A DNA stretch of 64,000 bases from Candidatus Woesearchaeota archaeon. Its GTDB lineage: Archaea; Nanobdellota; Nanobdellia; Woesearchaeales; GCA-2686295. The stretch lies in NCBI GenBank assembly GCA_013202845.1, contig JABMPT010000010.1:59876-123875 (forward strand). The letters are read 5' to 3'. The notes under the pieces were generated by a model. It did no database searches, was not told where the DNA came from, and saw nothing but the letters and a program-made list of their open reading frames with translations. The position numbers and the translations under genes were made by a program. Below, piece by piece: positions 1,490-34,648 of the stretch. How positions within the stretch are numbered: position 1 is the first letter of the stretch; the number at the start of each line of letters is the position of its first letter.

Positions 1490-1681
1490 TTATGCTTTCT
1501 TACCTTCCTTAACCCTGTGGTACTCGTTCGTCCACCTGGTTGTTCTTGATTTTCTTCCTAGTTTGAGCATGTTTTTTTCGCACTTGCTCGAGCAGAAATC
1601 AAGTATTTTACCGTCTTTCTTAACATACTTCTTTCCTGTTCCTGCTGGAATTGATTTTTTGCAAAAATTGCATCTGACCAT
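1490..1681 (-). CDS. rpl24e: Ribosomal protein L24e
   Basis: CNFCKKSIPAGTGKKYVKKDGKILDFCSSKC zinc-ribbon pattern followed by RKSRTTRWT. Confidence 0.9.
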   Translation of the reverse strand: MVRCNFCKKSIPAGTGKKYVKKDGKILDFCSSKCEKNMLKLGRKSRTTRWTNEYHRVKEGKKA

Positions 1682-1682
1682 T

Positions 1683-1943
1683 TTATTTCCCTCTTCCTTG
1701 CCTGTTCAAAGGCCTTGCTTCGATCTCAGTTTCTCTTAGCATCAGAATATCATCTTTTTGTACAGGTCCTTTGACATTTCTTGTGATGGTTTTGTTCTTA
1801 TCTCTTCCGTCTAGGATCTTGCATCTAACCTGGATAGCTTCTCCTCTTGTTCCTGTTCTGCCGACAATCTCGTCGATACGGGCTGGAACTGCTTGAGAGA
1901 AGTTCACTTGACCTTTTGTTTCTTGTTCAGCCATTTTTGTCAC
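1683..1943 (-). CDS. rps28e: Ribosomal protein S28e
   Basis: PARIDEIVGRTGTRGEAIQVRCKILDGRDKNKTITRNVKGPV matches the S28e OB-fold signature. Confidence 0.9.
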   Translation of the reverse strand: MTKMAEQETKGQVNFSQAVPARIDEIVGRTGTRGEAIQVRCKILDGRDKNKTITRNVKGPVQKDDILMLRETEIEARPLNRQGRGK

Positions 1944-1944
1944 C

Positions 1945-2253
1945 TTATATTTGTTTCAGGACGTCTTTTGCTTCTCCTGCTTTTAGTATTGCTATGGCTG
2001 CTGTTCCAACTGGTAATCCTGCTGCTGCGCCTAGTTGCTCTTTGCTGTCAACCTCAACGTATTTGATTTCTTTCTCCTTGCATAGCAATGGCAAGTGCAT
2101 GATTATTTCTGGTGGTTGAACATCTTTTGCAACTATGACTAGTTTTGGTGTTCCTCTTTCGATTTCTTTGGTCACTTCATTACATCCTTTTCTTATTTTT
2201 CCAGTCTTTCTTGCTAATTCGACTGCTTCATATATTTTTTCCGACATTTTCAA
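1945..2253 (-). CDS. rpl7ae: Ribosomal protein L7Ae (K-turn binding)
   Basis: ARKTGKIRKGCNEVTKEIERGTPKLVIVAKDVQPPEIIMHLPLLCKEKEIKYVEV is the L7Ae/L30e family signature. It is first in the conserved L7Ae-S28e-L24e-ndk cluster. Confidence 0.9.
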   Translation of the reverse strand: MKMSEKIYEAVELARKTGKIRKGCNEVTKEIERGTPKLVIVAKDVQPPEIIMHLPLLCKEKEIKYVEVDSKEQLGAAAGLPVGTAAIAILKAGEAKDVLKQI

Positions 2254-2438: not shown

Positions 2439-5252
2439 ATGGGTCTTTCTAAAAAAGTTAGGGAATATTGGAATAATCACACAGTTAGAGAAATAGAAGA
2501 AGACACGCTAGAATACGCCAGGAACATCCCTAAAAAAGTAAAAAATGTTCTAAAAGACCCATTATTGAAAGAAACTGCAAAAAGCATGCTACACACTGCA
2601 AAAATATGGACTACAGGCATAGCAGCAGTGTTAGTAACTTTCTTCGGAGCCAATTCCCAAATGCATTTCATAGAGAAAGGCATAGCAAAAGCGCTCGAAC
2701 GTTATGACAAACAAGGAATATTCTATGAAACAGGCTATCTATGGCAAAAGATAGACTTCCAGAAGAATCTAGAGGAATTAATATCGACAGGAGAGATAAA
2801 GGAAGAACAACCTATGCAAGTAACATCTACTCCACGACCATTTGATGATGTTGGAGATTTCTTTAAGTTTTGGAATAATGAATATAGAGATTACAGGAAT
2901 CTAGCATCAATAGTGTATCACACTGTAAAAGACAATCTTACAATAGCACATCATCTTGAAGGAGTGTTTCCAAGCATCCAGGCTCTCGACGAATTTCCAA
3001 AAAATGATAGTGAAAACATAGTCTTCAACGATAGAAAAGGAAGACAATTAGCCATGATAAGGTCAAATCACAAATATTACACTTTAGATGAGATATCTAA
3101 CACCCTTGAAACAGCTCTGATAATACAGGAAGACGAAAGGTTCAGAAAGCACGCAGGATTTGACTTTATGTCTGCAGTTAGAGCATATTTTGTAAACAAA
3201 AAAGCAGGAAGAATAGTCGAAGGAGCAAGCACCCTTACAATGCAGATAGCAAAGCACCTCTTTGTAAGAAACGGAGCGAATTACGACAAAACCTATGAAA
3301 GAAAAATAAAAGAAATTATGCTAGCTATGCAGATAGATTATACACATTCAAAAGATTTTCAACTTGAATTCTATATGAATAATATATGCGAATTCGGCAA
3401 TGGAGTTGTTGGATTTGGAGACGCATCACTTTTCTATTTCAATAAAAGAGTTGCAGATATTTCTCTTGCAGAAGCAACTTTCTTAGCAGTCATACCAAAT
3501 AATCCGGCAATGCACCCATACAGAGCAGATGGACTTAAACTGATAATGCAAAACCAGGCAAGACTTCTAGAAGAAATGGTTGATGAAAAAGAGATAACTC
3601 AAGAGCAGGCAGACCAGGTAAAAGCAACAGTATTCAATTTCAGCAAACCAAACTCAAGAATAAAAACCCCTTTCCCATACGTAATAGACTTTGTAAACTC
3701 ATATTTCCAATTAGCTTTGGAAGACCTTGGACTTCCGGCTGATGAATTTGACCTAACAAATCCAAATGGATTGTTCAGAATGACAGGAACAGCAGAATTT
3801 AACACAACTCTAGATAGAAACCTCATGTGGATATTGAATAATGCTGTGTTTGAAAGGAGATTTCACTGGAGTCAGGATTATGCATTCATGATAACTAATG
3901 CCAATTCAGGAGAAATAAGAGCGATCTGTTCAAGCGATGAAATAGGGCAGAACGCGAATATGCTGAAAAACTATGATTATCCAACAGGATCATCCCTTCT
4001 AAAACCACTTACTTATGCTCTTGCATTACAAAGTGGAGAGATGGATGTAGGTTCAAGATTTGATGACACAAAAGTAGCTCCAATCATTGAGGTTGATGGA
4101 ATACAGAAAGCATCATTCACAATAACAGACACATCCAGCTGGAATATTAGCAATTACAATAAAAAATTCCATGGAGAGCAATTATGGACAGATCTAGTTA
4201 AGACATCAAATAATATCGTGCCTGCAAAACTAGTCCTTGAGATGAATAATGGACAGATGACAGGTGCAGAAATGCTCAAATGGTACCTCGGACTGCTCGG
4301 GACAGACCTATCCCGGTACACCAAATCAGGTGACGAAATCTACTCGAGCGTCTTGGGAACCATTGAACAAACAGTTTTTGAAGCCAACAGCGGTTTCAGG
4401 GTGTTTCACGACGGAAAACTAATTCGTAATGCAGAAGATGAACCTTCATTGATACTGAGAAACTTCACATTACAAGATCATAAATTTGAAGTTGAAGATA
4501 ATATAGACTATGAGGGAGTATTGGCAGACAATGTTTTACCATACATCCAAGCAGCTCTATGGAAATCACTGAATGGTTCTGTAGGTGGTCTGTCAAGATA
4601 TTATGCTTATGGAAAAACAGGAACATCAGAATTTGAAAGATTCGAGAACACTCATGGCAGACTGACAAACGCGACATGGTACAATCTTGTCATTAAATCA
4701 AAATACTATGGTGACTTGGTATTCACAGGAGTTGCAACAACCCATAAAAAAACAGGATACATTGCTGCAAAAGTTCATGGACCTATTGTAAAGAACCTTG
4801 TCAAGAAACTTGGAAAAACTGATTCCAAAGGCCATTTCCGCAACCTTAACAACATAATTGCAGCTTCAACCAAAGAACCTGAAACAGAAGAAGTCTCAAA
4901 GTTTGTAATATCAGATATGTCAGTGCTTATCAATAATTATGTGGCAATGAACGGACCTATGATAAACAAAAGCGGAGAAAGCCATTTCATAAAAGGAGAC
5001 AAAATTTATATTAAAGATAATGCCTATGAAGTGTTAGCAGACCTTTCAACAAGACTTAATGCCAAAAGCAGAAAAAAATACTTGAAAGCATTGAACCAAT
5101 TAAGAAAAGGAGTGTATACAAGAAATATTCCATTAGTGATTGACATAAATGATATCATTGGAACAATGGAAAGCGCAAAGAGACAAGAGCACACCTATAT
5201 TAATTCTTTAGAGATAGGCACAGTTATAAGTCATTTGAGAAAAGAGTTCTAG
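2439..5252 (+). CDS. Class A penicillin-binding protein-like: GT51 peptidoglycan glycosyltransferase plus transpeptidase, N-terminal membrane anchor
   Basis: GT51 motifs QEDERFRKHAGFDF (EDxxFxxHxGxD), GASTLTMQIAKH (GxSTxTQQ), RKIKEIMLAMQID and EFYMNNICEFGNGVVGFGDASLFYFNK. Transpeptidase motifs GSSLLKPLTY (SxxK) and YGKTGTSE (KTG[T/S]). One TM helix near residues 55-75. Confidence 0.75.
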   Translation: MGLSKKVREYWNNHTVREIEEDTLEYARNIPKKVKNVLKDPLLKETAKSMLHTAKIWTTGIAAVLVTFFGANSQMHFIEKGIAKALERYDKQGIFYETGYLWQKIDFQKNLEELISTGEIKEEQPMQVTSTPRPFDDVGDFFKFWNNEYRDYRNLASIVYHTVKDNLTIAHHLEGVFPSIQALDEFPKNDSENIVFNDRKGRQLAMIRSNHKYYTLDEISNTLETALIIQEDERFRKHAGFDFMSAVRAYFVNKKAGRIVEGASTLTMQIAKHLFVRNGANYDKTYERKIKEIMLAMQIDYTHSKDFQLEFYMNNICEFGNGVVGFGDASLFYFNKRVADISLAEATFLAVIPNNPAMHPYRADGLKLIMQNQARLLEEMVDEKEITQEQADQVKATVFNFSKPNSRIKTPFPYVIDFVNSYFQLALEDLGLPADEFDLTNPNGLFRMTGTAEFNTTLDRNLMWILNNAVFERRFHWSQDYAFMITNANSGEIRAICSSDEIGQNANMLKNYDYPTGSSLLKPLTYALALQSGEMDVGSRFDDTKVAPIIEVDGIQKASFTITDTSSWNISNYNKKFHGEQLWTDLVKTSNNIVPAKLVLEMNNGQMTGAEMLKWYLGLLGTDLSRYTKSGDEIYSSVLGTIEQTVFEANSGFRVFHDGKLIRNAEDEPSLILRNFTLQDHKFEVEDNIDYEGVLADNVLPYIQAALWKSLNGSVGGLSRYYAYGKTGTSEFERFENTHGRLTNATWYNLVIKSKYYGDLVFTGVATTHKKTGYIAAKVHGPIVKNLVKKLGKTDSKGHFRNLNNIIAASTKEPETEEVSKFVISDMSVLINNYVAMNGPMINKSGESHFIKGDKIYIKDNAYEVLADLSTRLNAKSRKKYLKALNQLRKGVYTRNIPLVIDINDIIGTMESAKRQEHTYINSLEIGTVISHLRKEF

Positions 5253-5254
5253 CT

Positions 5255-5950
5255 CTACTCTCTATTAGCCCAGTCTACAGCAGCATCAACATCAGAAGTA
5301 GTTAGATCAAGCCATGGTTTTCTTGTCTGGAAAATCTTTGCACCCTTGGAATCCCATAGTAGCAAACCAGAATAAACCTTGCTAGGCTCAATTATGATCT
5401 CTGGAGGAGTAAAGTACGAAGTGTAGAGATTCTCTTTCACCATTCGCTTGTTCAAATCATCAAGGTTTATCTTTCCAAGCAATGCTTTTCTGGCTAGCAA
5501 GTTAATGACTCCCAGGACCTCTTCCTGACCGTCATATTTGACACAGAAGTTCAGGAAAAGGTTATCATAATCCTTTGTATCTTCCATCAGCTTCTTGAAA
5601 GCATCTGTTAATTTCATATCAAGATCAAACCATTTGCCGATAACGAAAACCCTGACCTTGTTTTTCTGGATATCCTCATTATTGATAAGCTCTTTGAACA
5701 GCTTTGTCAATTCAACAATCTCTTCATCAGATTCAGCAGAGATATTGAGTGTGAGTATGGGAAGAGCGTGTTTAATCTGATAATTAACAAAGGTTCTTAT
5801 CTGCTCAATATGCTTGTTCACAGCCTCTTTCTCCTCCTTTTTGTTCTTCTCAGCCCACCCCACAATAGAGCTGCCATTAATAGCTATGTGTAAAGGCTTC
5901 TTTTTCTCCTTTAGAAAATTCAAATCAATCTTTGGGAGTTTTAATTCCAT
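5255..5950 (-). CDS. cis-Prenyltransferase (UPPS) family homolog with degenerate catalytic residues; possible non-catalytic subunit
   Basis: UPPS-fold landmarks: HIAINGSSIVGWAEK in place of H(V/I)AIIMDGNGRWAK, and a C-terminal LLLWDSKGAKIF...VDWANRE. The catalytic Asp/Arg of the DGNxRW motif and the RTGGE region are replaced. Confidence 0.5.
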   Translation of the reverse strand: MELKLPKIDLNFLKEKKKPLHIAINGSSIVGWAEKNKKEEKEAVNKHIEQIRTFVNYQIKHALPILTLNISAESDEEIVELTKLFKELINNEDIQKNKVRVFVIGKWFDLDMKLTDAFKKLMEDTKDYDNLFLNFCVKYDGQEEVLGVINLLARKALLGKINLDDLNKRMVKENLYTSYFTPPEIIIEPSKVYSGLLLWDSKGAKIFQTRKPWLDLTTSDVDAAVDWANRE

Positions 5951-6690: not shown

Positions 6691-7548
6691 ATGATTCCGG
6701 TCAACTATGCCTTTGCCTTCTTTGGATTGCTTTTCGCTTCTATATTTGACATCAAAACAAGAGAGATACCTGACTGGCTGAACTATTCATTGATTGGCTT
6801 TGGTTTCGGAACTTCGATAATCCTTTCAATAACAAACCTGAATTACTGGATATTTGTATATTCACTGCTAGGTTTTCTGGCTGGACTGATAATATCATTA
6901 GTTTTCTACTATACAGGGCAGTGGGGTGGAGGAGATGCAAAGATGATGATGGCTTTGGGAGCATTGATAGGACTGGACTTTCATTCTGGCTTCCCGATAT
7001 TTGTTGTGTTGTTGCTCAACATCTTCATAATAGGAGCAATTTATGGCGCTATATGGAGTGTTTTTTTAGCTTTGAAGCACAGAAAACAGTTCAAGAAGAG
7101 CTTTAAAGAAATAATTAGGGAGAAAAACATCTTAATTATAAGAAAGACTATTTTAATTATAGTGGTCTTATTGTTGTTATTCTTATTCATAACTCCCACA
7201 TCTATGAAGCCATTCATAATTGGAATAGCAGCGTTCATATTCTTTGCATTCTACTTCTATATATACAGCAAAGCAGTGGAGAAGTCAGCGATGGAAAAAT
7301 ACATCCCTTTGGAGAAGCTCACAGAAGGAGACTGGGTCCTGGAAACAATATATATCAATGGAAAAAAGATATACAGTCCAAGCAATGAGGGAATAGATAA
7401 GAAAGAGATAAAGAAATTATTAGAGCTGAAGAAACATCACAAGAAGTCAAAGATAAAGATCAAAGAAGGAATTCCGTTCCTGCCAAGCTTCTTCATAGCG
7501 TTTATTGTTACTTTATTATTGGGTAATTGGGTTTTATGGGTGATTTAA
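6691..7548 (+). CDS. A24-family aspartic prepilin/preflagellin peptidase (FlaK/PibD-like)
   Basis: Polytopic membrane protein. Conserved Asp motifs FDIKTREIPD and GGGDAKMM (the GGGDxK of A24 peptidases). Confidence 0.75.
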   Translation: MIPVNYAFAFFGLLFASIFDIKTREIPDWLNYSLIGFGFGTSIILSITNLNYWIFVYSLLGFLAGLIISLVFYYTGQWGGGDAKMMMALGALIGLDFHSGFPIFVVLLLNIFIIGAIYGAIWSVFLALKHRKQFKKSFKEIIREKNILIIRKTILIIVVLLLLFLFITPTSMKPFIIGIAAFIFFAFYFYIYSKAVEKSAMEKYIPLEKLTEGDWVLETIYINGKKIYSPSNEGIDKKEIKKLLELKKHHKKSKIKIKEGIPFLPSFFIAFIVTLLLGNWVLWVI

Positions 7549-7550
7549 TA

Positions 7551-8135
7551 ATGAATAAGATAGCAGTAGATATTGTGTTATTACCATCAGAAGAGATGAT
7601 GGACAAAGCAATAGAGATAAATAAAAAATTATTAAAGAATAACGAACCTAAGATTGTGTTAAATAAAGAAAATTGTCTTCCACACATGTCTCTTTGTATG
7701 GGTGTTATCGACGAGAAAGATGTTGAGCTAGTTGGAAAAGAATTAACAACGATAAGCAAAAGATTCTCTGCTTTTGATTTGTCTTTTAATGAGCTTTTTA
7801 CTTCTGATCTTGGTTTTACAGAACTATCATCTAATAAGCCTGATGATCTTCAATTACTCCATGAAACTATTACTGTTAAACTTGCAAAATTCATGACTTA
7901 TAATGCAACTAGCGACATGCTTTTGTTATCAGATGGAGAGGAGAGTTTTTCTGCTGGTTGGATTAGTGGTTATCATAATAATGCTAGTTTTGAAAATTTT
8001 AGTCCTCATGTGACTGTTGGATATGGTGTTCCAGTCGTTGATCTCCCAATCAATTTTACTGCTTCAAAACTTGCTATTTGTCATATAGGAAATTATTGCA
8101 CTTGTAGAAAACTCTTGTTTGAAAAAACTCTATAA
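7551..8135 (+). CDS. 2H phosphoesterase superfamily protein (LigT/ThpR-like), paralog 1
   Basis: Two H-x-[ST]-x motifs, PHMSLCMG and PHVTVGYG. N-terminal IAVDIVLLPSEE. The ORF track starts at a TTG inside the upstream gene; the ATG at 7551 directly follows the upstream stop. Confidence 0.7.
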   Translation: MNKIAVDIVLLPSEEMMDKAIEINKKLLKNNEPKIVLNKENCLPHMSLCMGVIDEKDVELVGKELTTISKRFSAFDLSFNELFTSDLGFTELSSNKPDDLQLLHETITVKLAKFMTYNATSDMLLLSDGEESFSAGWISGYHNNASFENFSPHVTVGYGVPVVDLPINFTASKLAICHIGNYCTCRKLLFEKTL

Positions 8136-8163
8136 GATAATTTGTTATTAATATTGATATAAA

Positions 8164-8766
8164 ATGGAAAAAATTGCTATTGATATCGCATTATTATTGC
8201 CTGAAGAAATTAATAATATTTGTATTAATATTAATAGAAGTAAAGGAGTTGAAGCTTTTTCCGACTTAAGTAAACATGATAATCACCCTCATATAACTCT
8301 TGCAATGGGAGTAATCGATGAAAACCAGATTGATATTGTTAATAACAAATTAGAAGAAATTACTAAGGATTTTTCAGGTTTTGATTTAGAAATAATTGAT
8401 ATTTTCAATGAAACCACTCCTGAAAATAAAACTTCAACAAGCTTTGTTATCAAACCAAATGCTGAACTAAAAGAATTACATGAAAAAATAATGAATGAAT
8501 TATTACCAATCTTCACTTATAATGTTTCAAAAGAAATGTTTTTCATTGATTCAGATGAAGATTATAAAGAAGTTTCTGAGTATTGGGTTGAAAACTATGG
8601 TACAAATCATAAATATCCTGAAAAGTACAGACCACATATTAGTTTAAAATGTAGACATGGAAAATATAATTCTTTTCCTGTTAAATTCTTCACAAATAAA
8701 CTGGTTATGTGTCAACTTGGTAATTATTGCACTTGTAGAAAAATTCTTTTCGAAGTAAATCTCTAA
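8164..8766 (+). CDS. 2H phosphoesterase superfamily protein, paralog 2 (tandem duplicate)
   Basis: HPHITLAMG and RPHISLKCR H-x-T/S-x motifs. Shares N-terminal IAIDIALLLPEE and C-terminal GNYCTCRKILFE with paralog 1. Confidence 0.7.
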   Translation: MEKIAIDIALLLPEEINNICININRSKGVEAFSDLSKHDNHPHITLAMGVIDENQIDIVNNKLEEITKDFSGFDLEIIDIFNETTPENKTSTSFVIKPNAELKELHEKIMNELLPIFTYNVSKEMFFIDSDEDYKEVSEYWVENYGTNHKYPEKYRPHISLKCRHGKYNSFPVKFFTNKLVMCQLGNYCTCRKILFEVNL

Positions 8767-9266
8767 GGTATCCTATCCAATTGTTTCAATAGATAATTCT
8801 CTTCCTCATCAGACATTGCATCTTCTTCTTTTTCTTTCTTGTCCATCTTTGGAGGATGTTCTGGTTTTTCCTCTTTAGCTTCTTCCTTTGGAACGATTAT
8901 CTTTCCAGAAATAGAACTTGTAGCTGCATCCAGATCAGCAGTTTGTAATTGTTTTGGCTTCCATTGAAAGTTCAAACCATCGTCCTGCATCCTTGCAATT
9001 ACTTCCATGTAGAACTCTTCACCTTCATAAGTTATGATATTAGTACCCTGAGCTCCTATTGTTTCAAAGAGCATGGTGGCTGCGTAACTTGCTAAGTAGA
9101 ATAGATGTTCTGAATGCTCTTCAGAAAGATCATCCATCATCTTGACTTCTTGTTTAGGAATTATGACTATATGCCCTTTTGCAGCGGGTTTCTCGACGAG
9201 AACAGCTGCAGCTATGTCATCCTCGTAGATTATCCTGTCTTTCTTCTCAAGCAGTTCTCTTTTCAT
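8763..9266 (-). CDS. HIT-fold protein with fully degenerate histidine triad and an acidic/Lys-rich C-terminal tail
   Basis: IIYEDDIAAAVLVEKPAAKGHIVIIPK matches the HIT N-terminal half. The triad position reads EFYMEVIAR, with no His. Tail KEEKPEHPPKMDKKEKEEDAMSDEEE. Confidence 0.5.
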   Translation of the reverse strand: MKRELLEKKDRIIYEDDIAAAVLVEKPAAKGHIVIIPKQEVKMMDDLSEEHSEHLFYLASYAATMLFETIGAQGTNIITYEGEEFYMEVIARMQDDGLNFQWKPKQLQTADLDAATSSISGKIIVPKEEAKEEKPEHPPKMDKKEKEEDAMSDEEENYLLKQLDRIP

Positions 9267-10195
9267 TTTGAAAACATATGTGTAACTTTGTCAAGCAATG
9301 ATTTGCTCTTTTTCTCATCTTCAGGTTTTGCTTTTTCTTCCTCTTTCTCTGGTTTTGGAGTGTCTGAAACCTCTTCAGGTTTCTGAGCATCGCTCAAAAG
9401 CTTGTCTTTTGGCGCACCAGTAGCTTCACTACTGAGTGCGTCAGAAACTTTTGTTTCTGAGAGCTCTTCTGAAGTGGGTTCTGGCTTTTTCTCCTCGCCA
9501 AGGCCTTCTTTCAGTTTCTTAGATAATTTTTCAACATCAACACCCTGAAAAAGAGCTTTCATCTGAGGATTTAGCTCCATTGCCTGCTTTACCTGTGTAG
9601 GATCCTTAATTAGCAGCTCTTTCAATTGCGGATTCTGTTCAATTATCATGGCAAGATCATCTTTTGATGGCGGTTTAAGCAGTATCTTACCATCTTTTTG
9701 CAGATGTGAATGCATCATTTTCTCAAGATTGGCTTTCAATGGTTTCAGAAGGTCATCCTGTGAGATATCTTTTGAAGGAATATTGAAATTTTCAAGCATG
9801 TCATCATCATCTCTTGGTATTATGTGAAGTAAGAAATGTGGGCTTTGCTGTCCTGCAGCTGCGCCGTTTGCAATGAAAATGCTGCTTTTTGGAGCAGGTG
9901 TTCCATTCTTAACTCCTTTAGCCAAGTATTTTATCTTGCTGAACAAATGTTTGAAAGTCTCTGGAGATATCAAAGGCATTATAGGAACATGCTCTTTAGG
10001 AAGTACCAAAGTATGCCCTTTTGTAGAAGGATAAATATCCAGTATTGCTATTATCTTGTCATCTTCATATACTTTATGAGAAGGAACTTCGCCAGCTATT
10101 ATCCTGCAGAAGACACAATTCTTCTTCTGAAACTCTGCCATCTCCTCTGGACTCATGTTCTTAAGTTCCTCTTCTGTAGGTTGAGCTTCAGCCAT
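9263..10195 (-). CDS. HIT family (HINT-like) protein with atypical triad and a long K/E/P-rich C-terminal tail
   Basis: CVFCRIIAGEVPSHKVYEDDKIIAILDIYPSTKGHTLVLPKEHV is the canonical HIT N-terminus. The triad region PHFLLHIIPR has the 1st and 3rd His but Leu at the middle, nucleophilic position. Confidence 0.65.
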   Translation of the reverse strand: MAEAQPTEEELKNMSPEEMAEFQKKNCVFCRIIAGEVPSHKVYEDDKIIAILDIYPSTKGHTLVLPKEHVPIMPLISPETFKHLFSKIKYLAKGVKNGTPAPKSSIFIANGAAAGQQSPHFLLHIIPRDDDDMLENFNIPSKDISQDDLLKPLKANLEKMMHSHLQKDGKILLKPPSKDDLAMIIEQNPQLKELLIKDPTQVKQAMELNPQMKALFQGVDVEKLSKKLKEGLGEEKKPEPTSEELSETKVSDALSSEATGAPKDKLLSDAQKPEEVSDTPKPEKEEEKAKPEDEKKSKSLLDKVTHMFSK

Positions 10196-10639
10196 AGTAT
10201 TTATAATTAGTTCATTGTATTTAAATCTTTTTCCTTTAATTGTTCACAAGAATCACACAGAAATAGATATGTCTATATAGAATAAGATGTAAGTTTTATT
10301 TAGTTTATAACACGGAACTCTTTATTGAAAAACACTACAGCTGGCATACTGTTTAAATCTTCTTCGCTATATAGCTTTCCGTATTGGTCTGCATATACCA
10401 TTTTTTATTACTTCTACTCTTCGTCCTCCTCCTCGTACATAAATCCCATATCATCTATTTTCCAAGCCATATTGTACCTCCACTTTTTGTGTGTTTTAAA
10501 GGTCTACACACTCACCCAATAATGTATGTAGGACTTATATTAATATATACTTTTCCAATATATAACATATGTTGATATATGTTTTGAACAGAAAGATATA
10601 TAAACAGAAGATGTTTCTAAATTTATGAGGGGATAAATT

Positions 10640-11575
10640 TTGAAAAGAAAGGTTATACAGCACAGTCCAACATCTCTTGTGATAACTCTACCTACCAGTT
10701 GGGCAAGGAAAAACCTTGTAAAGAAAGGAGATGAGCTGAATCTTGAAGAGAATAAAAAAGAGCTTCTTATAAGAAAAGGAGAGATTGTCAGAAAATACTT
10801 TGAAGCAACCATAGACATAAGCAATCTAGACAAAACAACAATTCTCCAAATCATAAGAAATCTATACAGAGAAGGATATGATAAGATAAACATTAAATTC
10901 AGCAAAGAGAGAGTTCCTTACAAGAAGATAAAAGGAGCATTTCTTGTGACTGAGATAATCCACCGGGAAGTAAACAGATTAATAGGTTATGAAATAACAA
11001 GAGAGAAACAGAATTTCTGCATTGTGGAAAGCATTAGTGAAGGAGTTCAGGAAGAACTGCCAAAAATCATCAGAAGGATACATATGTTGCTAATAGACAT
11101 AACAGAGACATTGTATGAAGCAACAAAGAACAATGACAAAGCAGTATTGAAAACAATCCATGAAAAACACGAAACAATCATAAGGTTCATAAACTATTGC
11201 TTAAGAAGCGGAGCAAAAGAGCTCGACGAGAAACATCCTATAACAGACTCACAATACTATTTATTGGCTTCAATGGATAGAGTGGTCCATCTTCTAAGAT
11301 CATCTTCAAAGAGATTATTGAAGCTGAATGGAAAACCTTCTAATGAACTGGTGAAAACCATTGGAAAGACAGTTGAAGCACTCAGATTATTCACAAGATT
11401 TGTCTATCAGAAGAAACCAAGCATTGTAGTGGAAATGAACAATTTAAGATATTCTGTAGAAAAGATGATTACAAAAAGACCAACTAAGCTGGAAGGCGAG
11501 CAAGATCTTGTTTTTTACCATATGAGGCACATCCATCACTTGCTTCTAGACATATCTAATGTTATAGGTATGTAG
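10640..11575 (+). CDS. AbrB/MazE-like swapped-hairpin DNA-binding domain protein with a helical C-terminal domain (PhoU-like?)
   Basis: N-terminal SLVITLPTSWARKNLVKKGDELNLEE is typical of AbrB/SpoVT/MazE domains. The start is TTG, as in the ORF track. Confidence 0.4.
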   Translation: MKRKVIQHSPTSLVITLPTSWARKNLVKKGDELNLEENKKELLIRKGEIVRKYFEATIDISNLDKTTILQIIRNLYREGYDKINIKFSKERVPYKKIKGAFLVTEIIHREVNRLIGYEITREKQNFCIVESISEGVQEELPKIIRRIHMLLIDITETLYEATKNNDKAVLKTIHEKHETIIRFINYCLRSGAKELDEKHPITDSQYYLLASMDRVVHLLRSSSKRLLKLNGKPSNELVKTIGKTVEALRLFTRFVYQKKPSIVVEMNNLRYSVEKMITKRPTKLEGEQDLVFYHMRHIHHLLLDISNVIGM

Positions 11576-34532: not shown

Positions 34533-34648
34533 TGGGCCGGACGAGATTCGAACTCGCGACCACTTGATTGCTTTCACCTACTGAAAGTTCCAAAACTTCC
34601 AGTTTTGGTTAAAAGTCAAGTGCTCTTGCCAGGCTGAGCTACCGGCCC
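34533..34648 (-). tRNA. tRNA-Lys (anticodon TTT) with a roughly 40-nt canonical intron
   Basis: Acceptor GGGCCGG/CCGGCCC. D arm GCTC-AGCCTGGCAA-GAGC. Anticodon stem CTTGA/TCAAG with loop CTTTTAA. T arm GCGAG-TTCGAAT-CTCGT. Confidence 0.7.

Follow-up and report, generated by a model that had tools for sequence, protein, structure and literature searches.

A conserved pair of predicted HIT-fold pseudoenzymes in Woesearchaeota-type archaea and its unlinked 2H phosphoesterase neighbours

Background

HIT proteins are textbook covalent-catalysis enzymes. Their fold is an obligate dimer, and the middle histidine of the HIT triad forms a covalent nucleotidyl intermediate; to our knowledge, every characterised branch of the superfamily (Hint, Fhit, GalT, DcpS and aprataxin) uses this residue. 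Here we analyse a 64,000-nucleotide stretch of a Candidatus Woesearchaeota archaeon genome (assembly GCA_013202845.1, contig JABMPT010000010.1, positions 59,876 to 123,875 of the forward strand; hereafter the window), in which two tandem HIT-fold genes, HIT-long and HIT-short, face two tandem genes for 2H phosphoesterases, 2HA and 2HB. An initial annotation, made from the sequence alone, had taken the four genes for one dedicated module.

In sequence, HIT-long resembles the zinc-bound Hint-type HITs (1Y23, 3IMI from B. anthracis, 3O0M from M. smegmatis and 2EO4 from S. tokodaii), whose fold it shares and to which it is 34-38% identical across the HIT domain. Common to all of them are the CxxC and KGH segments, the Asp-Ile ribose contact, the Asn/Gln phosphate loop, and the first and third His of the triad. 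HIT-long differs from this group in its nucleophile position, which holds Leu, Met or Ile, in a 180-aa C-terminal extension composed of an STI1-like domain and an acidic tail, and in having an obligatory degenerate partner.

Arrangements of one active-site-bearing and one degenerate HIT half have been described. The avian Asw (HintW)-Hint heterodimer model reportedly joins two such subunits as one dimer-like unit. GalT and Ap4A phosphorylase are tandem HIT pseudo-dimers of the same composition, a GalT-like layout shared by the fusion proteins reported below; GalT keeps the nucleophilic His, whereas in the pair studied here neither half does and the halves are mostly separate polypeptides. HIT proteins that act through a bound ligand also have a precedent. 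Fhit in complex with Ap3A associates with ribosomes and hinders translation in a manner that does not depend on hydrolysis (PMC9121386), and PDB entries of hHint1 H112N were deposited as substrate complexes. By analogy, we offer these cases, together with Fhit H96N, as instances in which the ligand-bound state rather than turnover would be the active one. The HIT pair differs from them in that its loss is natural and family-wide, as opposed to laboratory mutants or a slow enzyme, and in that its ligand binding is only predicted.

Results

HIT-long and HIT-short are a syntenic gene pair

We found 508 homologues of HIT-long and sampled the loci of 80 out of 300 confirmed HIT-long relatives in GTDB species genomes. 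HIT-short follows HIT-long directly on the same strand in 77 of the 80 loci, and the other three end before the second gene. The two codons usually overlap. Measured from the HIT-long stop to the HIT-short start, 31 loci have a spacing of -4 nt and six one of -8 nt; in the window, the junction sequence reads ATGA at 9263-9266, where the HIT-long stop codon overlaps the HIT-short ATG. About 300 GTDB species representatives have the HIT pair as a syntenic part of their core genes, and among Woesearchaeota-type DPANN archaea it is almost universally present. Since reduced genomes retain few dispensable genes, it probably does something important for these symbionts. A search of one literature library found no paper joining HIT proteins with Woesearchaeota or DPANN, or describing HIT proteins as pseudoenzymes.

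We ran HIT-short through an exhaustive phmmer search of 1.84 billion cluster representatives and obtained 919 relatives, 376 of them at E<=1e-10; HIT-short alone accounts for no fewer than 376 clusters at 50% identity. Of the best 149 representatives, fifteen combine the two proteins in one chain of 308-398 aa, with a HIT-long-type domain ahead of a HIT-short-type domain. Among these fusions is P0358, an NCBI Woesearchaeota protein found on eight contigs, which sits between Elp3 and Peptidase_A24, the slot that the split HIT pair occupies elsewhere. Because HIT folds are obligate dimers, the codon overlap and the natural fusions, including the syntenic P0358, make a heterodimer of HIT-long and HIT-short, with the character of a GalT-like pseudo-dimer, the most likely arrangement. 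The first domain is without the middle His in 14 of the 15 fusions; the remaining one, P0300, keeps a HAHIH triad, and this sequence points to descent of the HIT-pair lineage from active enzymes. A second lineage of HIT-HIT fusions (P0263, P0313, P0324, P0332, P0368, P0370, P0373 and P0380) is without the NYL..L.R.P ending and closes in another conserved peptide, [DE]-E-I-x-x-A-I-x-x-x-x-x.

A gene cluster is found within 8 kb of the HIT pair, on either side of it, in 29 of the 80 loci (among L004-L079). From sequence recognition, without a profile search, we take its genes to be L7Ae-S28e-L24e-Ndk-aEF2(-S10). The cluster lies beyond pibD or, in L023, L035, L037, L048 and L051, upstream and divergent, and its presence may be no more than conserved housekeeping synteny.

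The HIT-long triad is degenerate over conserved pocket residues

Both HIT proteins belong to the HIT superfamily (PF01230), with the fold and with profile matches above the curated threshold. We set the register of the HIT-long triad with HMMER alignments to B. subtilis Hit (1Y23) and to two other solved HITs (3IMI and 3L7X). SPHFLLHIIPR of HIT-long aligns over VFHYHMHIIPR, which puts Leu122 at the nucleophile position, the replacement that had been read from the sequence at the outset. A mis-registered triad was rejected, as the alignments to all three solved HITs are ungapped across the motif.

The replacement is a property of the family. Among 171 distinct HIT-long orthologues, the nucleophile position holds Leu (122), Met (48) or Ile (1) and in no case His; the first triad His is present in all of them and the third in 168. 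The catalytic HIT motif H-phi-H-phi-H/Q-phi-phi, with the middle His as nucleophile, is found in neither HIT-long nor HIT-short, and the loss of the nucleophile from both fits the initial suggestion that the two proteins are non-catalytic, which we likewise predict.

The remainder of the HIT-long active site has been retained. C27, C30, D53, I54, G60, H61, H69, N110, G115, Q116 and H120 are invariant in the orthologue alignment, F29 and I32 are invariant or nearly so, and in the hHint1 register the protein carries the pocket residues of Hint. From this register to hHint1 and the bacterial zinc-HITs, we infer that the invariant residues form the zinc site and the contacts to base, ribose and alpha-phosphate. 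An aliphatic residue at the nucleophile position together with an invariant pocket is, as far as sequence can tell, what would be expected if selection acts on the binding of a ligand and no longer on covalent chemistry, and we read HIT-long in this way because its nucleophile is never His while its pocket does not vary.

HIT-long carries predicted partner-binding regions

The AlphaFold model of HIT-long (mean predicted local distance difference test, pLDDT, of 76.7) resolves into four regions. Its HIT domain is modelled confidently, as is a compact five-helix bundle at residues 178-234 whose helices reach a pLDDT of 93-97. The Pfam profiles that match this helical region fall in one group: at E<=0.01, among 41 HIT-long orthologues, UBQLN1 matches nine, Ddi2_HDD six and XPC-binding four. 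One orthologue, P0030, passes a Pfam cut-off, with 28.9 bits on UBQLN1 (cut-off 27); P0084 comes to 26.1 bits on XPC-binding, whose cut-off is 26.4. A profile of the helical region searched against PDB sequences matched the Rad23 XPC-binding domain at E=0.026 and also CBP NCBD and DDI2, the three spanning an E range of 0.03-0.3. The region has repeated NPxL...NPE-type hairpins like those of STI1, ubiquilin, the Rad23 XPC-binding domain and Ddi2 HDD, and its matches are on this group only; it differs from the group in that the matches are marginal and in its context, a HIT fusion in an archaeon. The evidence that the helical domain belongs to the STI1-like group is thus moderate and comes from profile comparison.

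Both HIT proteins have E/K/P-rich tails, confirming the acidic, Lys- and Pro-rich endings first noted, and residues 236-298 of HIT-long have a pLDDT below 50. The HIT-long tail closes in [LM]-D-x-[IV]-x-x-[LM]-F in 34 of 78 orthologues, and AlphaFold predicts a terminal helix at residues 301-308. This ending recalls the archaeal stalk protein aP1, whose L100, L103, L106 and F107 bind aEF1A and aEF2 (PMC4267659). Like the aP1 C-terminus, the HIT-long tail would combine an acidic flexible linker, a short helix, hydrophobic residues at i, i+3, i+6 and i+7, and a Phe near the C-terminus; the likeness is one of pattern only, and the HIT-long motif differs in being limited to those 34 orthologues. 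A profile of the tail found no match among PDB sequences, hence no support for the likeness to aP1, and no aP1 gene was found in the window or in the fetched loci. We treat stalk mimicry as a lead at the level of pattern.

HIT-short is a degenerate partner with a conserved terminal peptide

HIT-short is without the N-terminal base-binding segment, and in the alignment Val-Glu stands where HIT-long has the ribose-binding Asp-Ile, so that the Hint pocket residues are not present. The triad position reads E84-F-Y-M-E88 followed by VIAR, free of His as initially described. Among 134 single-domain cluster representatives, the triad region only rarely keeps more than one His, and no His, Cys or Ser is conserved at the triad. 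The pocket positions drift freely in HIT-short, unlike in HIT-long. What is kept is the long helix with the next strand (LF..AS..A..LFE.L.A.GTNI), a DGLNFxWxPK segment and the C-terminal peptide. From general knowledge of HIT structures, this conservation is consistent with a kept dimer interface rather than an active site.

Most HIT-short orthologues end in [ED]-N-Y-L-[IL]-K-x-L-x-R-[IVLT]-P. The final [RK]-x-P closes 71 of 78 orthologues and the fuller motif 66 of 78, and the short ending recurs in 120 of the 134 single-domain representatives. A terminal peptide of the HIT-short type persists in fusions without the STI1-like domain, so its target is probably external.

The 2H genes are unlinked neighbours of the HIT pair

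The initial description of the 2H proteins stands as far as their motifs are concerned. 2HA (HMSL and HVTV) and 2HB (HITL and HISL) each have two intact H-x-[ST]-x motifs and the two lobes of the 2H fold, which places them in the 2H superfamily. Both motif His are invariant across 44 aligned family members, and the two proteins share the C-terminus GNYCTCRK[LI]LFE, part of a family-specific LGNYCTCRK motif with two near-invariant Cys. Alignment to Pfam profiles, which had been proposed as a check of all four proteins, gave a divided result: the HIT profiles score above threshold and the 2H profiles do not. The 2H proteins reach 20.5 and 26.1 bits on 2_5_RNA_ligase2 (PF13563; cut-off 27), 19.2 bits on LigT_PEase (PF02834; 23.3), and 13.2 and 28.5 bits on the ThpR equivalog TIGR02258 (65.7); many of their homologues carry a precomputed PF13563 match. 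These scores below the Pfam and TIGR02258 thresholds, and their own LGNYCTCRK motif, set them apart from LigT/ThpR, YjcG and the archaeal '2'-5' RNA ligase'. The combination of a profile score above threshold and a closest structural neighbour that would mark the anti-CBASS protein Acb1 was not found for either. We regard 2HA and 2HB as apparently ordinary LigT/ThpR/YjcG-like 2H enzymes, predicted to be catalytically competent.

Within this family, 2HA belongs to the sub-branch that is commonest in metagenomes, 'HITLG'. It scores 224 bits on the family hidden Markov model (HMM), and its ATG at 7551, rather than an upstream TTG at 7527, fits the family N-terminus MxKIAIDxxLLP. The AlphaFold model of 2HB has a pLDDT of 96.8. 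A recent tandem duplication was rejected, the two proteins being 37% identical and from different sub-branches; by sequence, they are old paralogues.

Co-location in relatives, set by the initial annotation as a test of the four-gene arrangement, holds for the two HIT genes and fails for the 2H genes. We searched the 80 HIT loci with the 2H family HMM, built from 97 members, and counted 2H genes no farther than 8 kb from the HIT pair; in 67 of these loci, the sequence runs on for 1 kb or more past HIT-short. The HMM matched two of the 80. These loci, L001 and L002, come from some of the closest relatives and have one 2H gene each. In L081-83, which encode a 2H protein identical to that of L002, the order is pibD > 2H > < HIT-short < HIT-long, again with a single 2H gene. 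Conversely, the HIT pair is absent from all 80 metagenome loci found through the 2H family, and none of those loci has two 2H genes. A search for a recurrent neighbour of the 2H family in the same 80 loci gave no family present in more than seven, and P0138, which is 59% identical to 2HB, lies among unrelated genes. In the window, 2HB and HIT-short converge and their stop codons overlap at 8763-8766; the 2H and HIT genes therefore have no shared transcript and are separate transcription units.

The 2H genes occupy a slot between HIT-short and the prepilin peptidase gene pibD that varies from species to species. pibD abuts HIT-short directly in 23 loci; in others, coiled-coil, membrane or AAA genes lie between the two. 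Among close relatives of the window, where it holds two 2H genes, the slot contains a NUDIX and a 2H gene in L001, one 2H gene in L002, and an HD-domain hydrolase gene (5204-5824, minus strand) in L003; the L001 NUDIX gene (1637-2146, plus strand) starts 62 nt after HIT-short on the same strand. These inserted hydrolase genes are singletons without homologues in the other loci. The four-gene arrangement is a lineage-specific juxtaposition, given the 2H gene in 2 of 80 HIT loci, the HIT pair in 0 of 80 2H loci, and the convergence of the genes; the conserved unit is the HIT pair. The 2H genes are recent, unlinked neighbours that are probably not functionally tied to it.

At L084:5001-6239, a 2HA-type gene (P0171) is convergent with a diadenylate cyclase (DAC) gene. 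DAC was rejected as a linked partner of the 2H family, since the main neighbour families across the 80 2H loci do not include it. L084 also has a canonical 137-aa HIT gene between two PheRS subunit genes.

Discussion

The HIT pair is best described as a widespread, undescribed, natural and family-wide pair of HIT pseudoenzymes, probably a heterodimer, with putative eukaryote-like STI1-type and short-peptide modules. With somewhat better than even confidence, we favour the view that the locus holds two independent things, namely a HIT pseudoenzyme pair that would serve as a nucleotide-binding adaptor and 2H genes that lie untied to it in a variable slot. This view takes the conservation, operon structure, nucleophile loss, fusions and folds as its footing and would extend from them to a heterodimer, to ligand binding and to an adaptor role. 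HIT-long and HIT-short would be the products of a translationally coupled two-gene operon and form an obligate HIT-fold pseudoenzyme pair of Woesearchaeota/Nanoarchaeota-type DPANN archaea. HIT-long would have kept the zinc ligands and the Hint-type nucleotide pocket and exchanged the His of the covalent intermediate for Leu or Met. HIT-short, which would have lost the base-binding N-terminus, the ribose-binding Asp and the triad and kept the long helix with the strand next to it, would serve to complete the fold. The heterodimer would have a single ligand site, in HIT-long, binding a nucleoside-5'-phosphate ligand (NMP-X or NpnN) that is not cleaved by the HIT mechanism. As a receptor or adaptor, the complex would use its STI1/ubiquilin-like domain and the peptides at the ends of its two flexible acidic tails to recruit partner proteins. 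2HA and 2HB, diverged and apparently active, would be residents of the insertion slot between the HIT pair and pibD.

Several points weigh against this view. Retention of the HIT-long pocket is read from an alignment and not from a bound ligand. HIT-long of the window itself has no STI1-like Pfam match at E<=1, and about 20% of its orthologues have no recognisable STI1-like repeat. Homodimers of HIT-long or of HIT-short could form in place of the heterodimer. Finally, the different nucleotide hydrolases found in the slot of close species leave a small probability of a loose functional association within the sub-clade.

The initial proposal, which we now consider improbable, was of a single four-gene module for RNA-end processing, repair or nucleotide-signal degradation, in which the HIT proteins could be non-catalytic substrate-binding subunits of the active 2H enzymes. 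The order pibD > 2H > < HIT-short < HIT-long does recur in the closest relatives (L001 and L002/L081-83), and nucleotide hydrolases do occur in the slot of several close species (NUDIX in L001, HD in L003). Synteny nevertheless already largely refutes such a module: no 2H gene comes within 8 kb at 78 of the 80 HIT-pair loci, none of the 80 2H loci has the HIT pair, two 2H genes are seen at no other locus, the 2H and HIT genes converge until their stop codons overlap, each inserted hydrolase is a singleton, and in 23 loci pibD leaves no slot at all. The other possibility raised at the outset, that the 2H and HIT genes are paired as toxin and immunity partners or for defence, is given next to no weight here. 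It is inconsistent with the distribution, as the HIT pair lies in the core synteny of about 300 species, a stable rather than variable or mobile context. PADLOC returned only a generic HIT-family (ThsC) match, short of a defence or toxin-antitoxin assignment, and a PHROGs search gave nothing specific.

The HIT pair, taken by itself, might still be an enzyme that works without the covalent His, through water attack aided by H124, H120 or the zinc, or by a residue of HIT-short. The active site is otherwise strictly conserved, as expected if its chemistry were under selection, and the fusion P0300 keeps a canonical triad. We nonetheless hold this to be unlikely: the replacement is aliphatic in all 171 orthologues (Leu, Met or Ile), never a possible nucleophile or general base, HIT-short offers no conserved His, Cys or Ser at its triad, and use of the middle His is established knowledge for the characterised HIT branches. 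Rather more doubtful is a purely structural scaffold or chaperone-like adaptor that has lost nucleotide binding and keeps its pocket residues for folding and zinc. Family descriptions of eukaryotic STI1-type domains as client-binding modules of co-chaperones and shuttle factors would suit such a role, as would the conserved terminal peptides on both HIT proteins. The invariance of D53-I54, N110 and Q116, which align with the ribose and alpha-phosphate contacts of hHint1, is hard to ascribe to folding alone, and the same positions drift freely in HIT-short. On balance, we prefer the nucleotide-binding pseudoenzyme pair to either.

A long shot built on the preferred pseudoenzyme pair is that the heterodimer could be a non-hydrolysing receptor for a nucleotide alarmone (ApnA-like or NMP-X) that makes translation in DPANN archaea responsive to nucleotide status. 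Its ligand would occupy the single surviving pocket, and the acidic tail with its L-D-x-[IV]-x-x-[LM]-F ending would mimic the C-terminal helix of aP1 and compete for aEF2 or aEF1A. Further partners would dock on the STI1-like domain and the NYLxKQLxRIP peptide, and in some species neighbouring 2H, NUDIX or HD hydrolases would clear the ligand. If true, archaea would here have a natural equivalent of the brake that Fhit-Ap3A puts on translation. Even without that step, a natural family with an aliphatic residue at the nucleophile position, an intact pocket and an obligatory degenerate partner would, if the preferred reading is right, be a clear case of an enzyme turned receptor or adaptor. It would also place in archaea an STI1/ubiquilin-like helical module that is usually discussed as eukaryotic. 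The locus counsels caution as well, since a suggestive four-enzyme cluster resolved into one conserved two-gene unit and unrelated neighbours.

Features of the window

A window-wide reading of open reading frames (ORFs) gave all four genes at the positions in Table 1, in agreement with the initial annotation. HIT-long and 2HB are each 100% identical to NCBI proteins from a Candidatus Woesearchaeota metagenome-assembled genome, on a contig of 138 kb.

Table 1. Genes, motifs and predicted regions of the HIT-2H locus (window coordinates)
Feature	Position	Strand	Basis or remark
2HA, 2H phosphoesterase gene	7551..8135	+	194 aa; 'HITLG' sub-branch
2HA motif HMSL	7683-7694	+	Sequence read
2HA motif HVTV	8007-8018	+	Sequence read
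2HB, LigT/YjcG-like 2H phosphoesterase gene	8164..8766	+	200 aa; 'HISLKCR' sub-branch
2HB motif HITL	8290-8301	+	Sequence read
2HB motif HISL	8635-8646	+	Sequence read
HIT-short, second gene of HIT pair	8763..9266	-	167 aa; Pfam HIT 44.2 bits
HIT-short C-terminal peptide NYLLKQLDRIP	8766..8798	-	Orthologue comparison
HIT-short pseudo-triad E84-F-Y-M-E88 (then VIAR), without His	9003..9017	-	Sequence read
HIT-long, first gene of bicistronic HIT pair	9263..10195	-	310 aa; Pfam HIT 71.8 bits
HIT-long C-terminal peptide LLDKVTHMFSK	9266..9298	-	Motif [LM]-D-x-[IV]-x-x-[LM]-F-x0-2
HIT-long disordered E/K/P-rich linker, residues 236-298	9302..9490	-	pLDDT <50; composition
HIT-long putative STI1/ubiquilin/XPC-binding-like helical domain, residues 179-231	9503..9661	-	AF2 model and family profiles
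HIT-long HIT domain, residues about 26-130	9806..10120	-	
HIT-long degenerate triad H120-F-L122-L-H124	9824..9838	-	Ungapped alignment to 1Y23, 3IMI, 3L7X
HIT-long ANGxxAGQQ loop	9845-9871	-	
HIT-long KGH	10013-10021	-	
HIT-long ribose-binding LDI	10034-10042	-	
HIT-long CxxC	10106-10117	-	

A scan for sigma-70 promoters and terminators in the window gave results at background level; the sigma-70 model does not apply to archaea. The window also contains genes for Elp3, a prepilin peptidase and UPP synthase, and a putative intron-containing tRNA, a gene content that identifies it as archaeal. The tRNA, 116 nt long (34533-34648, minus strand), matches Rfam at 57.9 bits and was missed by ARAGORN in bacterial mode, a combination consistent with an intron-containing archaeal tRNA. 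A 937-aa protein (2439-5252, plus strand) carries a peptidoglycan transglycosylase domain of the GT51 family (PF00912, 154.6 bits). This is a cell-wall enzyme of bacterial type, here encoded by a DPANN archaeon, and the relative L081 has the same gene.

Divergent from HIT-long is a gene (10640-11575, plus strand) whose 311-aa product begins with a domain of the AbrB/MazE type (SpoVT; PF04014, 26.5 bits); the gene is kept beside Elp3 in the closer relatives. Two micro-ORFs lie 5' of HIT-long on the same strand as HIT-long: one at 10417-10470 (minus strand) encodes the 17-aa peptide MAWKIDDMGFMYEEEDEE, and the other, at 10300-10401 (minus strand), the 33-aa peptide MVYADQYGKLYSEEDLNSMPAVVFFNKEFRVIN. 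Both are kept at the syntenic position in L002, L003, L005, L009 and L081-83 with 55-83% identity, the first being present in two copies in L005, and a D-x-x-G-x-phi-Y-x-E-E-D pattern is common to the two.

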